DNA of 64,000 bases, from the NCBI GenBank assembly GCA_043732185.1, contig JAYTHY010000088.1, forward strand, positions 1 to 64,000, read 5' to 3'. The notes below the pieces were generated by a model. It saw nothing but the letters and a program-made list of their open reading frames with translations. It made no database searches and was not told where the DNA came from. Shown one piece after another: positions 5,331 to 10,881 of the stretch. Within the stretch, counting starts at the first letter, position 1; every line of letters begins with the position of its first letter. Source of the stretch: Fibrobacteria bacterium (GTDB lineage: Bacteria > Fibrobacterota > Fibrobacteria > UBA11236). The translations under genes were made by a program, and so were the position numbers.

Positions 5331-5359
5331 GAAACGTATCGGGTGTAGGAACAGACTCA
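5331..5359 (+). promoter_or_regulatory. Putative ECF sigma promoter, copy 1 (GAAACGT-N15-AGACTCA)
   Basis: The same motif and spacing occur at 6250-6278 (+) and 9117-9145 (-). The ATG starts 10 nt after the last base of AGAC. Confidence 0.7.
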
Positions 5360-5365
5360 TGCCCT

Positions 5366-6199
5366 ATGAGAATTTCCCATCTGTTCTTATTCCTCTTAGC
5401 CCTCAGTTTTCCGGTCTCTCCACTTGGCGCTCCAATCTCTACATCGTGGGAGAAGTGGGCCGCGTATCAGGACTCAAGTCAAAAGCAGCTGAACTATGGC
5501 CCATGGAAGGTTTTTCTTGCAACTTACCTTGACACAACCTCCAAAGACCAGATAAATCGACTCCGATATGGCAAAGTATCGAAACGGGATCGGGCTGTTT
5601 TGGAATCCTTTCTTGAGGTATTGCAAGGAGAGACAATACGTACTTTGAACAGGCAGGAGCAAAAAGCCTTTTGGATGAATCTATACAATGCGATGACGGT
5701 TGCCGTGGTTCTTCGGGCCTATCCCATCGGCAGCATTCGCGAGATCGAACTTCCCAACAGCGTATCCAAAGCTGGTCCATGGGATGCTAAAATCATGCGC
5801 GTCGAAGGCGTCGAACTCTCACTCAATGATATCGAACATCAAATTTTGCGACCCCTTTGGAAAGACAATCGGGTCCATTTCGCTTTGAATTGCGCCAGCC
5901 TGGGTTGCCCCAATCTGGCTCCTGTTCCCTTCACAGCAGCGAACTCGCAAGCCTTACTGAATAGAGGCACCAAATATTTTATTCAATCTGAACGCGGTTC
6001 TTCTTTTGACGGCAAGACTCTGGTCCTCTCCAGTATTTTCGATTGGTACAAGGAAGATTTTGGATCCGATCGCGACAAGGTGGTCGAATTCATCTCCCTA
6101 TATTCCGATCCTGTGATTCGGAAAAAGCTTGAGGATTTCAAAGGTGGAATGAAGTACCAGTATGATTGGAAGCTGAACGATGCCGTGCCTCGGCCCTGA
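5366..6199 (+). CDS. DUF547 domain secreted protein
   Basis: Signal peptide; AFWMNLYNA, LSLNDIEHQILR, RVHFALNCASLGCPNL, LSSIFDWYKEDF, YDWKLND. Confidence 0.92.
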   Translation: MRISHLFLFLLALSFPVSPLGAPISTSWEKWAAYQDSSQKQLNYGPWKVFLATYLDTTSKDQINRLRYGKVSKRDRAVLESFLEVLQGETIRTLNRQEQKAFWMNLYNAMTVAVVLRAYPIGSIREIELPNSVSKAGPWDAKIMRVEGVELSLNDIEHQILRPLWKDNRVHFALNCASLGCPNLAPVPFTAANSQALLNRGTKYFIQSERGSSFDGKTLVLSSIFDWYKEDFGSDRDKVVEFISLYSDPVIRKKLEDFKGGMKYQYDWKLNDAVPRP

Positions 6200-6249
6200 G
6201 TAGGTTTGGGTCCCCGTCCATGGGGATGCGTCGATGTTCGTTTTTTCTT

Positions 6250-6278
6250 GAAACGTTTCGCTGAATGTCAGAGACTCA
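6250..6278 (+). promoter_or_regulatory. Putative ECF sigma promoter, copy 2 (GAAACGT-N15-AGACTCA)
   Basis: Identical boxes and spacing to copy 1. The ATG (6285) again starts 10 nt after AGAC. Confidence 0.7.
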
Positions 6279-6284
6279 GGGAGC

Positions 6285-7112
6285 ATGAATAAAGTTCCGC
6301 AATGCTTCCTATTCCTTTTCGCCGGATTGTTTTCATTCACACGGACCCAGGGTGAAAGCTTTCGAATTTCCGGACTGGCCGTGGGTATTGGAGACTGGAT
6401 AAACGTCTCGGACCGGGATTGGAGCACACGGGAGGATTACGGAACCTTGCCTGCAGCCTCCTTGTATTGGGCTGGGTGGGGCTGGAACGGCAGCTTGGGC
6501 GTCCCATTGAAATCCTCATTCAAACGGATTGGGCATAAGACACGCTACTCGCTAGGTGACGGTGAAATATCGGTGGGGAAGCGAATCGGCGCGTGGTCTC
6601 CCAGGATGTCCCTGAAATTCCCTGCCTATGATTGGTCCGTGGCGCATCCGGGAGTGAACGAACTGTATATCGGAAGTGGCACCTGGGATTTGGCTGTAGG
6701 GTTGGGCGGACGCATTCCAAATAGCTTTCTCTCCAAGCGGCTTACCCTTCAATTCGACATCGAGGGGTCCACGGTTCTGGCGACCGGATTGGCTGACTAC
6801 GGTTCGTACAAAGGCCTTGGTGCCTTCCAGGCTTCGTATGCTTTGGGCAGCCGTTGGAAGGCAGGGATGACCACACTCTTTCTTTTCGATCACTGGATCT
6901 GGATCCCGAATTATTGGGATCAGGAGGGAGAAACCAAATTTTCCATTGTACCCGGAGCCGTCGTAGGAGTCAGGATTTTCCAATCCACCTATTTGGATGC
7001 TAAAGCCGGTTGGGGCTTGTATGAATACAAGAAGTTGATCCGTCCAAAGTATGCGACTCTAAGCCAGGACTCATATCACTTCGGCATCTCCATTTATCAA
7101 GCTTTCAAATGA
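6285..7112 (+). CDS. Putative outer-membrane beta-barrel protein (unknown family)
   Basis: Signal peptide; alternating Gly/aromatic-rich strands, LGDGEI and GSGTWD motifs reminiscent of MetA-pathway-type barrels, C-terminal FGISIYQAFK. Confidence 0.55.
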   Translation: MNKVPQCFLFLFAGLFSFTRTQGESFRISGLAVGIGDWINVSDRDWSTREDYGTLPAASLYWAGWGWNGSLGVPLKSSFKRIGHKTRYSLGDGEISVGKRIGAWSPRMSLKFPAYDWSVAHPGVNELYIGSGTWDLAVGLGGRIPNSFLSKRLTLQFDIEGSTVLATGLADYGSYKGLGAFQASYALGSRWKAGMTTLFLFDHWIWIPNYWDQEGETKFSIVPGAVVGVRIFQSTYLDAKAGWGLYEYKKLIRPKYATLSQDSYHFGISIYQAFK

Positions 7113-7889
7113 AGGCTGCTCGAACCATTTTAGGCGCGTCCAGGTTTCGAACCAAGAGGGAATCTTGGACATCAAAGAGTTTACCTCCGGGGAATCAAGA
7201 TTTTCGGCCACAGCTTCACATGCCAAACCCAGGGGCTGGCCCGCGCGTAGCCTGTTCAACAGGTGGAATGGAATCGGATCCAGTTCTTTCCACTCTACAT
7301 CATTCCCATTTCTAAAAACCGCCCAATAACCCTTCCTGTCCAGGACAATCGGAACTTCATTCTTTTTTTCCTCCAAGGCCGTGCGGCATTCCATCAGGTT
7401 CCAGTCCTCTTCCAGCAGGGAAAAACATGGCTGAAAAACCAGGGAAGTGTCGGCCAGTATTTCCAATTCTCGTGGGGAGAGTTTGCTCGGGTCCAAGGGG
7501 AAAACAACAGGTGCATGAAAGGCATTCAGCATGGCTATTTCCAGGGCAGCGATTTGTATGAGTTGGGGTGTATTGTAAATCACACTGGTTTTTAAAAATT
7601 CCACGAACCCATTGGGCAAGTTTTGGAGATAGGGCGAGCGGGAAGGATGCTGATCCAGAAAGGCCGTTGCAAGTTGATTGAATTTCCAAAGGCCCATGGT
7701 CCCGGCCAGCAGGGGAAAATCCTGTTGGAGAACTGTCATTAGGCGATACCAATATTGCTCATTGTATACCACTAGTCGATCTATTCTGGATTGGAATCGG
7801 CCGGTGGAAAAGGAGAATGGCGTTCGGATCAATTTACCGAATTGTTCCTGGATTAGAACCAGTTCGAGTGGTGGGATCCTTTTTTCCAT
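7071..7889 (-). CDS. DUF2063 / HvfC-BufC-like MNIO partner protein
   Basis: RLVVYNEQYWYRL...QQDFP...FLDQHPSRSPYL...IAALE; lies directly downstream of DUF692. Confidence 0.85.
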   Translation of the reverse strand: MEKRIPPLELVLIQEQFGKLIRTPFSFSTGRFQSRIDRLVVYNEQYWYRLMTVLQQDFPLLAGTMGLWKFNQLATAFLDQHPSRSPYLQNLPNGFVEFLKTSVIYNTPQLIQIAALEIAMLNAFHAPVVFPLDPSKLSPRELEILADTSLVFQPCFSLLEEDWNLMECRTALEEKKNEVPIVLDRKGYWAVFRNGNDVEWKELDPIPFHLLNRLRAGQPLGLACEAVAENLDSPEVNSLMSKIPSWFETWTRLKWFEQPSFESLINGDAEVI

Positions 7890-7891
7890 TT

Positions 7892-8713
7892 TCAACAGGC
7901 CACCTGGTAGTCGCGGGCCCGCAGCGCTTCGGCATGCAGCTCTGGAAATGGGGGGATTTTATCATCCCGTTCCAGCAAGGTCGGAAATCCGCCGGAAATA
8001 TTCCATGCATGTCCATACAATTCCCAAACCTCGCGGCGCACTTTTTCCTCATGGGTGTCGAGGAGGGTGCCATCCTGTTTTTCAGTGTGACCGGCGATAT
8101 GGCATTGTAAAACTTTGTCCCAGCGAATGGAATCCAGATACCTTCGGGCGTCAAACCCATGATTCACGGAAGAGACGAATACGTTATTGATATCCAGCAT
8201 GTACCCACATCCGGAAAGTTCCACCACTCGATTGTAAAAATCCGATTCTTCCATTTCGCTTTCCTTGAAGCTCGCGTAACTCGATAGATTCTCCAATCCG
8301 AAAGGAATGCCGATGAAATCCTGAACTTCGGAAATCCGTTCTGCTATGTACCGCGCATTTTCCTCCGTGTACGGTACAGGAAGGAGGTCGTGGTGATGGA
8401 TTCCATGGGTGGAAGTCCAGCAAAGGTGATCGGTGAAATATGGTGTTGCAGTCATTACGGTGAGAGCTTTCAAACGATCCAAATAGGAATAATCCAAAGG
8501 ATCAGTTGAAGCGATGCCCAAGCTGACACCGTGGAGCACGACAGGATAGGTGGAAAGAATTCGCTCAAGATTCCGTTTTGGAAGCGGCGCATCGCCCATG
8601 AAGTTTTCCGATACAATTTCGAAAAATTCCACTTTCGGCCATTCGGAAAAGATGTGGCGGTAATGCGGCAATCGCAAGCCTAGTCCTATAGCGTTTCGTG
8701 GAATTCTGTTCAT
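7892..8713 (-). CDS. DUF692 multinuclear non-heme iron-dependent oxidative enzyme (MNIO)
   Basis: GLGLRLPH, FEIVSENFM, HGVSLGI, TDHLCWT, HDLLP, LENLSSY, LDINNVFVSSVNH, HIAGH, DTH, LLERD. Confidence 0.96.
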   Translation of the reverse strand: MNRIPRNAIGLGLRLPHYRHIFSEWPKVEFFEIVSENFMGDAPLPKRNLERILSTYPVVLHGVSLGIASTDPLDYSYLDRLKALTVMTATPYFTDHLCWTSTHGIHHHDLLPVPYTEENARYIAERISEVQDFIGIPFGLENLSSYASFKESEMEESDFYNRVVELSGCGYMLDINNVFVSSVNHGFDARRYLDSIRWDKVLQCHIAGHTEKQDGTLLDTHEEKVRREVWELYGHAWNISGGFPTLLERDDKIPPFPELHAEALRARDYQVAC

Positions 8714-8727
8714 GGAGTTTTCAATAC

Positions 8728-8769
8728 GGCTCCTCCGCTTTACCGCTATCGGATTTAAGCGGAGGAGCC
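8728..8769 (-). other. Intergenic 13-bp stem-loop between precursor and MNIO genes
   Basis: GGCTCCTCCGCTT (8728-8740) pairs perfectly with AAGCGGAGGAGCC (8757-8769) around a 16-nt loop. Confidence 0.8.
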
Positions 8770-8775
8770 ATTGGT

Positions 8776-9075
8776 TCAGGACTCGATACAGCTCCCGCCC
8801 TTGCAGGCGGAATGGCCTTTGCACTCGTGTTGCGCAACGCCCTTTCCTTCCTGGTAGCTGTGGCCTTTGCACTCATTCAGGGACTGGCACTCATGGGTCT
8901 TGAAGGTGCCCCCCAATTTGGTACACTCCGTTTGGAAGTCGGCCAGGGTCTTGGCTGCGACGATGCCGTTCATAGTCGCTGGCGCGCTGGAAGTACTGTT
9001 TTCGCATGCCGTAAAAGTAAAGCTGCCAGCCATCATTCCTGCGATGGCGAGACGGGTTAGTGATCGCTTATCCAT
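8776..9075 (-). CDS. Cys-rich MNIO precursor (bufferin/BufA2-like CKG repeats) with lipoprotein signal peptide
   Basis: Strong RBS (TAAGGAG), lipobox FTAC at Cys24, repeats HECQSLNECKGHS and HECKGHSACKGGSC; immediately upstream of DUF692. Confidence 0.85.
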   Translation of the reverse strand: MDKRSLTRLAIAGMMAGSFTFTACENSTSSAPATMNGIVAAKTLADFQTECTKLGGTFKTHECQSLNECKGHSYQEGKGVAQHECKGHSACKGGSCIES

Positions 9076-9116
9076 TCTTAATCTCCTTATCAGGAACCCG
9101 GAATTGGGTTCGCCAA

Positions 9117-9145
9117 TGTGTCTTTGTCGTTACGCAAAATGTTTC
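9117..9145 (-). promoter_or_regulatory. Putative ECF sigma promoter, copy 3 (GAAACAT-N15-AGACACA)
   Basis: Same bipartite motif, on the minus strand about 40 nt upstream of the precursor ATG. Confidence 0.7.
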
Positions 9146-9168
9146 AAACAAAATGATCGACTCCTTCA

Positions 9169-9816
9169 TCAAAAAGTATTTTCCATGATCGCCTGCGGAA
9201 ACTGAGACCGGATTTTTTCGACGATCAAACATCTGGCTCGATGCAGTCTCACCCGGACCAGGGATTTGGTAATGCCCAGTTCGAGTGAGGTTTCTTCACC
9301 GCTGAGTCCCTCGAAATCCCTGAGGTAATGGACGTCACGGTATTTCCTATCTAATTTTGCCGCGGCAAATTCCACCATCCGCACCAGCTCCAATTGCATG
9401 AGGACGCTGTCAGGCAAGGGATCTTTCGATTCAATATTTTCAAGGACATGGGATTGGGTAGTGGGCGAATTTACCTTACGGTATTTTTCGGCCAACTTGT
9501 CGCAAATCTTATGGTAGGCCAGGGAAAAAATCCAGGTGGACAACTTACACCGGCCTTCGAATCCGGGAAGCCCTCGATGCACGGCAATGTAGGTTTCTTG
9601 CAGGATCTCCTCTACGGCGCATGAGTCTGGAAAATATCGATGCACATAGGAGGACAATGGGGCATAGGTTTGGTTGAAAAGGTGGCTGAATGCTCTTTCG
9701 CATCCAGGGGTCTCGGAGCGCACCTCATTCAGGAAAGATGCCGTATTGATCTCCAGGAAAGGTTCGCTCGGTTCGCGAAATTTTTTCCCGGACGCGAAAG
9801 ATTTGGGTACTACCAC
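9169..9816 (-). CDS. ECF (sigma-24) RNA polymerase sigma factor; start uncertain
   Basis: EEILQETYIAV...FEGRCKLSTWIF (region 2) and LRDFEGLSGEETSLELGITKSLVRVRLHRAR (region 4). Confidence 0.92.
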   Translation of the reverse strand: MVVPKSFASGKKFREPSEPFLEINTASFLNEVRSETPGCERAFSHLFNQTYAPLSSYVHRYFPDSCAVEEILQETYIAVHRGLPGFEGRCKLSTWIFSLAYHKICDKLAEKYRKVNSPTTQSHVLENIESKDPLPDSVLMQLELVRMVEFAAAKLDRKYRDVHYLRDFEGLSGEETSLELGITKSLVRVRLHRARCLIVEKIRSQFPQAIMENTF

Positions 9817-10041
9817 AAGCTGTTCCTCGGAATTGGATCCGCATCCCTATTGAAACTATTGAAACTATCTCAATGCCTTTGCATAAGATATCTTTCATAG
9901 AAATGCGATTCTTCCATTTCCATGCAATATCCGTATTCAAATGTTAACGGCAGTTCCGACGGCCCTATAGCCTTACCTCCACTTGGCGGTTATACTTATC
10001 GGGTGCCTTCGAACCAAAGGTAGGGACAGGAAAATGCAGTT

Positions 10042-10881
10042 ATGAGTCCTTCTACGGTCGAGCCGGATGTCCTCCATTACTCGGATTACCGGACCTTTCT
10101 CCGAGATCTTTATGATTTCAGAAAGTCCCGGCAACCTTCGTTCTCCTACCGGTATTTTGCCCAAAAGGCTGGCATCGGCAGTCCCAACTACCTGAAGCTG
10201 GTCATGGACGGAGAGCGAAATCTGACCAAAAAAAGCCTGGTGAAATTCCAATCCGCCTTGGGCCTCAAAAGCAGAAGGGCGGAATTCTTCGAGAATTTGG
10301 TATTTTTCAACCAGGCTACCACAATTTCGGAGCGGAATATCTACTATGAAAACATCCTCAAGGTGCGCACCCGGTCGGGTCTTAGAAAGCTTGAGGAAAA
10401 CCAGTTCCAATTGTTTACGGACTGGCGACATATCGTGATTCGAGAGATGGTGGCGCTTAAGGGGTTTCGGCCGGATCCCCACTGGATACTTCGGAAGTTA
10501 GGCAAGGGATTCACAGTGAAGCAGATTGAAGAATCACTGGCTCTCCTTTCCAATATGGGGCTCCTCAAACGGACGGCCAACGGTGTCGCCCAAAGTGACG
10601 TCAACATTACCACCTCCGATGAAGTACGTTCTCTACTGATCAAGAACTATCACCGGCAGATGATGCAAAAGGCTCTCACCGTGCTGGATACTCTGCCCGC
10701 CTCCCAAAGAGACATTTCCAGCATCACCATCCCAATCCATGCCCGGGATTTCATCAAGGTCAAGGAACTCATCCAGCTTATGCGCAAGGAGTTGTTGAAT
10801 CTGGGTGCTGATTCCGGTGAGGGCGGAGAAGTGGTGCATATCAATATTCAGCTTTTCCCTCTGACGGGCATGCAGGATTGA
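10042..10881 (+). CDS. TIGR02147 family (DUF4423) putative regulator
   Basis: YSDYRTFLRDLY...FSYRYFAQKAGIGSPNYLKLVMDGERNL; W-x-H-x-x-IRE; YHRQMM; RDISSIT; NIQLFPLT. Confidence 0.92.
   Translation: MSPSTVEPDVLHYSDYRTFLRDLYDFRKSRQPSFSYRYFAQKAGIGSPNYLKLVMDGERNLTKKSLVKFQSALGLKSRRAEFFENLVFFNQATTISERNIYYENILKVRTRSGLRKLEENQFQLFTDWRHIVIREMVALKGFRPDPHWILRKLGKGFTVKQIEESLALLSNMGLLKRTANGVAQSDVNITTSDEVRSLLIKNYHRQMMQKALTVLDTLPASQRDISSITIPIHARDFIKVKELIQLMRKELLNLGADSGEGGEVVHINIQLFPLTGMQD

Follow-up and report, generated by a model that had tools for sequence, protein, structure and literature searches.

In the 64,000-nucleotide stretch of contig JAYTHY010000088.1 (assembly GCA_043732185.1, a Fibrobacteria bacterium) analysed here, hereafter the window, three promoter-like motif copies with the same spacing precede a DUF547 gene, a beta-barrel gene and an operon encoding a bufferin-type precursor and its MNIO (DUF692) maturase. 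A sigma factor gene of the extracytoplasmic function (ECF) type lies beside them. By comparison with relatives, the core of this motif is the autoregulatory promoter of a paralogous group of Fibrobacterales ECF sigma factors, clade A, and the three promoters belong to a regulon wider than this locus. In the lineage of this genome the clade A copy appears decayed, and the neighbouring orphan sigma factor, of clade B, has probably inherited the regulon. Sequence comparison gave us the motif, the regulon membership, the two clades, the decay of clade A and the conservation of the promoter boxes; the reading by clade B, the signal and the roles of the products we infer.

The promoter pattern and its regulon

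The strict motif, GAAAC(G/A)T-N15-AGAC(T/A)CA, was chosen post hoc. It was found before all three units named in the sequence-only reading, an earlier annotation made from the window without database searches (P1 to P3, Table 1). No other match occurs in the 4,460,883 bases of this genome (G000; other G numbers denote related genomes and C numbers contigs), and 0 of 100 dinucleotide shuffles of the window contained any match. Because the motif had been picked post hoc, random triples were drawn from 3,486 crude 100-nt upstream windows, and 6 of 20,000 shared any 5+4 gapped word at a spacer of 14–20; the motif thus remains unlikely by chance. The two-box word GAAAC-N17-AGAC alone was not enriched, with 25 genome hits against 21 at N16 and 29 at N18. 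We concluded that the strict motif is real and is conserved in relatives.

The core pattern G(T/A)AAC-N16/17-(A/C/G)GAC was derived from MNIO loci, the 13 closest and 7 that are paralogous. Among the precursor genes, 9 of 12 are preceded by it. For the barrel the figure is 7 of 9 full orthologues, or 8 of 12 loci when three weak homologues are included; none of these figures is independent of the pattern. The precursor genes missed were those of G014 and G002 (contig C4), in which the gene lies directly behind the sigma gene or the palindrome upstream of it, and that of G034, for which the scored gene was the second of two precursors in tandem. DUF547 has a core-pattern site of its own at 6 of 21 loci. 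The ATG begins exactly 10 nt past the -10 box in 3 of the DUF547 genes and in 6 orthologues of the barrel, which suggests leaderless mRNAs for both genes; the DUF547 mRNA starting from P1 is probably of this kind.

Using the window sigma factor as query, we searched 39 genomes, fetched the loci and built a tree of 44 rows. Clade B, to which the window sigma factor belongs, received a support of 100/98. The remainder of the 38-row family, for which the tree gives no single resolved clade, is referred to as clade A. At 20 of the 21 clade A loci the sigma gene is followed at +1 by a gene for a zf-HC2 zinc anti-sigma factor, and the core pattern was found just upstream of all 20; the 21st copy, assigned by the tree (G025), does not have it. 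An initial count had given 16 of 21, since four windows had cut through the motif. The chance level is low (shuffle mean 0.19; background 0.8% per 280 nt). As the pattern had been fixed from the MNIO loci before the clade A upstream regions were examined, the clade A test is independent, and we concluded that the core pattern is, on the evidence of these alignments, the autoregulatory promoter of clade A. In 8 genomes the clade A operon has DUF547 in third place. Clade A alone was found in G018 and G021 (100% complete), and there the motif, including its GAAAC-N17-AGAC variant, precedes the precursor, barrel and flavoprotein genes; from this distribution the regulon is ancestrally clade A's.

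Clade B loci have no anti-sigma gene, and the motif lies upstream at 1 of 16. The sequence-only reading had noted as atypical that the window sigma gene has neither the motif upstream nor an adjacent anti-sigma gene. We found no such motif within 300 nt upstream of it, and the sole above-cut-off zf-HC2 match in the genome lies on contig C36; both oddities are general traits of clade B. The assumption that adjacency points to the cognate sigma factor had to be given up, as the motif autoregulates the paralogous clade A (20 of 21 loci) and not the clade of the window sigma factor. Clade B adjoins the MNIO operon in G000, G008, G011 and G014, a DUF2063 remnant in G007, and the barrel and DUF547 genes in G002. 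The locus of G002 is split: DUF547, barrel and sigma genes lie next to rseP on one contig, and TIGR02147, the palindrome and a more divergent precursor-MNIO operon without a sigma gene on another (L078, L038). For the ECF sigma assignment, the best NCBIfam model is PRK11922, at 95–103 bits against a cut-off of 204.

A matrix trained on the 20 clade A sites only was then used for scanning G000, and P2 and P3 were among the top 17 genome hits. Further sites were found before msrAB (C26), an arsM-like methyltransferase gene (C85) and a YpdA/TrxB-like flavoprotein gene (C45); the flavoprotein carries 4Fe-4S domains and a gene for a VTT protein is next downstream. Two high-scoring hits that point at no gene, C50:27201 and C6:92863, were dropped. 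Among orthologues, the core pattern is present at 13 of 18 flavoprotein loci (19 of 27 loci entered, one of them skipped at a contig end; reverse-strand count 2), at 8 of 27 msrAB-like loci, with GCAAC at the same place in 5 more (3 of 30 skipped; reverse-strand count 2), and at 5 of 12 arsM-like loci (reverse-strand count 1). The msrAB genes are divergent from the clade A sigma gene in G020 and G022, as is the flavoprotein gene in G034. By this comparison the promoters belong to a regulon that extends beyond the local locus and includes the msrAB, arsM-like and flavoprotein genes. The joining of DUF547, barrel and MNIO operon in one regulon by ECF-type promoters, which the sequence-only reading had proposed, could be kept, while its confinement to a local module of three promoters and six genes could not, given at least three further conserved sites on other contigs.

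From the unpublished genome G011 come a single site each for clade A, clade B, precursor, barrel, msrAB and flavoprotein, and a single instance of adjacency between sigma and MNIO genes; the conclusions are independent of it. Two observations concern the regulon in relatives. On contig C172 of G038 the msrAB, arsM-like, DUF547 and flavoprotein genes are clustered (L113, L164, L184, L203). Several sites of family f2 and of G018 seem to have (C/G)TAC at -10 and not VGAC (L182, L201, L163, L164, L169), possibly a shift in specificity.

The clade A copy and the reader of the promoters

The clade A copy of G000 (C36:86609-87160) is short: residues 111–146 of the query, about 36 residues of the sigma2-sigma4 linker, are missing, and this deletion is common to G000, G002 and G008. 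The copy sits on a long branch, has changes at otherwise invariant positions of regions 2 and 4 and reaches 23 bits with TIGR02937 (cut-off 42.9). In G000 it lies directly behind an antiporter gene without the promoter motif, an arrangement shared by G002 and G008. In three pairs each, the ratio of nonsynonymous to synonymous substitution (dN/dS) was 0.29–0.67 for the short copy vs 0.08–0.11 for clade B. In E. coli sigmaE, deletion of the linker abolished full-length transcripts (PMC6648896, excerpt); the excerpt of PMC6372665 held nothing on linker length. At this locus (L132:4350-7225) the linker-deleted sigma and zinc anti-sigma genes stand behind a Na/H antiporter-TrkA_C gene in three species, and the sigma gene is possibly a decoy or decaying.

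The only intact member of the A/B family found in G000 is the clade B sigma factor. In six promoters compared between G000, G002 and G008, 0 of 54 box columns varied and 13 of 100 spacer columns did (Fisher p 0.003). Clades A and B agree at the equivalents of RpoE Asn84, Arg171 and Ser172, mapped with a one-residue offset that we assume for the RpoE numbering, whereas the short copy differs at two. These three residues are specificity determinants (PMC7776599, excerpt). As the boxes are conserved while the clade A copy is degenerate, something still appears to read the promoters, and probably this is the clade B sigma factor. The window sigma factor thus stays the likeliest reader in G000, as the sequence-only reading had it, on the strength of the degenerate clade A copy and not of adjacency.

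The 16-bp palindrome was found upstream of 16 of 16 clade B sigma genes vs 0 of 21 of clade A, the pattern having been fitted to the 16 clade B sites. A TAnnnT hexamer stands 42–43 nt from it on the sigma side at all 16 loci and, at the same distance on the opposite side, at 14. The centre of the palindrome lies near -62.5 from both hexamers, which we take to be close to a class I activator position. The palindrome of the window is the best of 7 genome hits. It is presumably unlike the CRP consensus; G000 has two CRP-family genes. A sigma70 scan gave 3 sites, fewer than in shuffles, and missed both -10-like hexamers. The divergent TIGR02147 gene is one of 24 paralogues in G000, and the palindrome was rejected as a general operator of this family, as none of the 7 hits lies before the other 23. 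Clade B loci from which the TIGR02147 neighbour is gone still have the palindrome. The family name TIGR02147 was not found in the literature search.

We consider it probable, from these comparisons, that the locus belongs to an ancestral Fibrobacterales ECF regulon for thiol-reactive stress, in which clade A has decayed here and clade B reads the promoters. The signal would be thiol-reactive stress caused by metal, oxidant or perhaps arsenite. In the ancestral state the clade A sigma factor would be held by the small zinc anti-sigma factor encoded just downstream, and release of zinc would free it to transcribe its own operon. The freed sigma factor would also transcribe the genes for a lipid-anchored Buf2-like bufferin with its MNIO/DUF2063 maturase, for DUF547 and for the FapF-like barrel, together with msrAB and the genes for the arsM-like methyltransferase and the YpdA/TrxB-like flavoprotein. 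In the lineage of G000, G002 and G008 the clade A sigma would have decayed and the orphan duplicate of clade B taken the promoters, its activation occurring at the stage of its own transcription, through the palindromic site. A fuller version is tentative, and we would rather doubt that all of it holds: the regulon handed from an anti-sigma-controlled ECF to an orphan duplicate, its control moving from zinc-finger sensing to a putative palindromic activator site shared with the divergent TIGR02147 gene, and the barrel taking the lipid-anchored bufferin, or the metal that it carries, through the outer membrane. The TIGR02147 family, large and paralogous, may supply the regulator of the palindrome.

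Several points weigh against this account. With the clade-A-trained matrix P1 scores below 13 bits and there is no genome-wide enrichment (17 hits at ≥16 bits vs 20 and 25 in two shuffles), and the three extra targets are intergenic matrix hits chosen by eye. The related genomes are kin and partly incomplete, so that the counts overstate independent support. The dN/dS values of the short copy come from three pairs in which dS is low, the box and spacer comparison includes three promoters, of six, without any variation, and the specificity residues were compared by eye. Nine of 14 clade B loci have no MNIO, barrel or DUF547 gene downstream, one of them ending at a contig edge. The reading frame of the short copy itself remains open over its 183 codons in G000, G002 and G008, with dN/dS below 1, and the zinc anti-sigma factor on C36 is intact, with HxxxCxxC, and identical in G000 and G008. 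The last two findings would suit a short sigma factor that is still functional and cognate under its anti-sigma factor, which we regard as quite unlikely in view of the deleted linker, a part required for full-length transcripts (PMC6648896, excerpt), the changed invariant positions, the below-cut-off TIGR02937 score and the lost promoter.

It is unlikely, too, that the promoters are relics or weakly read, with clade B reading another motif after the decay of clade A and its adjacency to the MNIO genes a matter of rearrangement. The near absence of autoregulation of clade B through the motif (1 of 16) and its usual tie to TIGR02147 rather than to MNIO genes would fit this; the boxes are nevertheless invariant while the spacers drift in the three short-copy species, and the DUF547 and barrel genes are under purifying selection (dN/dS 0.10–0.24). 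The self-contained local module with a dedicated neighbouring sigma factor, as in the sequence-only reading, is very doubtful. All three strict matches are local and share GAAAC-N17-AGAC, and clade B lies beside the MNIO operon, a DUF2063 remnant or the barrel and DUF547 in six genomes, but the same variant occurs in G018 and G021 with clade A only, and conserved sites precede msrAB, arsM-like and flavoprotein genes on other contigs. An unrelated ECF sigma factor of G000 as reader is highly improbable: six others exist, and -35 boxes of the AAC type are frequent in ECF groups (PMC7826278, excerpt of the supplement), but the motif lies upstream of none of the six and all fall outside the A/B clade in the tree.

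Likeness to known circuits

This type of circuit is already known from Neisseria and Caulobacter; what is new is its promoter here, together with the additional members and the apparent handover. In Neisseria the zinc anti-sigma ECF system sigmaE (Ecf)-MseR, group ECF293, controls a DUF692/DUF2063 operon and msrAB (PMC2893595, PMC2954202, PMC7826278, excerpts). The present system shares with it the ECF sigma factor with a small soluble zinc anti-sigma factor at +1, the DUF692 and DUF2063 operon and a distant msrAB, and the promoter layout is similar (GTMAG...CGTCTAA in Neisseria vs G(T/A)AAC...VGACTAA here). It differs by the absence of DoxX, by GAC as -10 core, by the additional DUF547, FapF-like barrel, arsM-like and flavoprotein genes, and by the degenerate paired sigma of G000 with an orphan paralogue beside the operon. 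The soluble zinc-finger anti-sigma at +1 typical of ECF293 is present in clade A (20 loci) and absent from the window sigma. Three cysteines in sigma4 are noted for most subgroups of ECF293, and clade A is without them; in the alignment clade A mostly has no sigma4 cysteine and clade B mostly one.

In Caulobacter, SigF-NrsF (ECF16) controls the buf1 and buf2 bufferin operons (PMC11626156, PMC3511200, excerpts). Common to both systems are an ECF-controlled bufferin operon, a GTAAC-type -35 with a 16-nt spacer and, as in buf2, a six-cysteine precursor, MNIO and DUF2063 without DoxX. In contrast to Caulobacter, the anti-sigma factor is a soluble zinc finger instead of the six-helix NrsF, the -10 is VGAC instead of CGAA/CGTA, and the precursor, predicted to be a lipoprotein, stays far below the BufA2 cut-off. 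The DUF1109/NrsF anti-sigma at +1 of ECF16 is replaced by the precursor gene in the window and by zf-HC2 in clade A. Sigma genes are reported for Buf1 but not Buf2 clusters (PMC12452194, excerpt).

The literature search returned no account of the Fibrobacterales regulon, of DUF547 or barrel membership or of a paralogue swap; the supplements of the bufferin papers and of PMC7776599 were outside the search. Among the titles listed, none for DUF547 dealt with bacterial regulons and none for Fibrobacter with ECF sigma and regulon with the present system, and the main text of PMC12452194 mentions neither DUF547 nor a barrel nor Fibrobacter. For an ECF family of a phylum that has received little study, the analysis defines a promoter and a regulon. 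DUF547, which occurs in plants as well, and the barrel of Fibrobacteria would take their place in a response to metal/thiol stress, next to msrAB and bufferin. The apparent handover is a natural and testable example in which a regulon changes sigma factor and control mode, and the one conserved site gives a first handle on the TIGR02147 family. It also teaches that an adjacent sigma factor cannot be presumed cognate.

Gene products and features of the locus

The features are listed in Table 1. Profile matches bore out the identities given to the DUF547, DUF2063, MNIO and ECF sigma genes in the sequence-only reading.

Table 1. Features of the MNIO locus and its flank, in window positions.
Feature	Position	Strand	Remarks
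ECF promoter P1	5331..5359	+	-35 GAAAC, 17-nt spacer, -10 AGAC; DUF547 ATG begins 10 nt past -10 box
DUF547 protein	5366..6199	+	PF04784 E 7.5e-25; signal-peptide-like N-terminus; invariant CxxxxC (C176/C181)
ECF promoter P2	6250..6278	+	ATG 10 nt past -10 box in 6/9 orthologues
Outer-membrane beta-barrel, FapF/COG4313-like fold (predicted)	6285..7112	+	no Pfam match; named homologues Fibrobacterota
DUF2063 MNIO partner (BufC/HvfC-like)	7071..7895	-	PF09836 E 2.7e-16; NF050145 63 bits vs cut-off 142
MNIO (DUF692) bufferin-type maturase	7892..8713	-	PF05114 E 2.5e-97; NF050167 308.8 bits vs cut-off 310
Strong RNA hairpin between precursor and MNIO genes	8726..8770	-	-35.5 kcal/mol, z -5.7
Buf2-like precursor	8776..9075	-	lipobox-like Cys24, six invariant core Cys; NF050166 16.7 bits vs cut-off 60
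ECF promoter P3 of precursor-MNIO-DUF2063 operon	9117..9145	-	ATG 45 nt past -10 box
Orphan ECF sigma factor, clade B	9169..9816	-	profile match and tree
Sigma70-type -10-like hexamer for sigma gene	9885..9890	-	42 nt from palindrome
Conserved 16-bp palindrome, consensus GTTAAC-N4-GTATAC	9933..9948	none	equidistant from two divergent -10-like hexamers
-10-like hexamer for divergent TIGR02147 gene	9991..9996	+	42 nt from palindrome
TIGR02147/DUF4423 gene	10042..10881	+	usual divergent neighbour of clade B sigmas

The precursor has an export signal, judged by eye, and six conserved cysteines (C51, C63, C69, C85, C91 and C96) that are invariant in 15 rows; the lipobox-like C24 is present in at least 90% of the rows. 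As it falls below the BufA2 profile cut-off, it is called Buf2-like only. A lipoprotein is predicted for about 16% of the Buf2 precursors (PMC12452194, excerpt). A single-sequence structure model of the precursor was discarded for its predicted local distance difference test (pLDDT) score of 50.8. NF050167 is the best model for the window MNIO, and the DUF2063 partner lies downstream of it as in Bufferin 2 clusters. Through the hairpin that separates the precursor gene from the MNIO gene, the level of precursor mRNA is probably raised over that of the downstream genes. In DUF547 the CxxxxC is invariant in an alignment of 12.

The barrel model (pLDDT 74.7) has a predicted FapF/COG4313-like fold (Foldseek E 1.4e-8), a shared fold that shows no function. 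VIA gave Z 21.4 and 21.2 to PDB 5o65 and 4rl8, with a root-mean-square deviation of 2.8–3.0 over 225–228 residues and the next family at 17.9. Unlike FapF/COG4313, to which identity is 8–11%, 0 of 16 barrel members match any Pfam family, PF13557 included; in an Atlas neighbour cluster PF13557 is on 74% of members. Copper binding, export through the barrel and the stress signal are suggested by the bufferin papers and the regulon content.

G000 has a second MNIO gene (L133, G000:C50:755-3418). Divergent from it lies a PF13557-like barrel gene, and two small open reading frames for secreted products are convergent, one with a partial BufA2 match. No DUF2063 was seen nearby, and the motif preceded 0 of 4 tested genes. 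Unclassified barrel-like genes (by eye), without a Pfam match, flank the MNIO operon in G037 (L041:11138-12040) and G034 (L042:7447-8325). In G016 (L221, contig C45) the barrel gene and that of a 60%-identical precursor converge with no MNIO gene between them.

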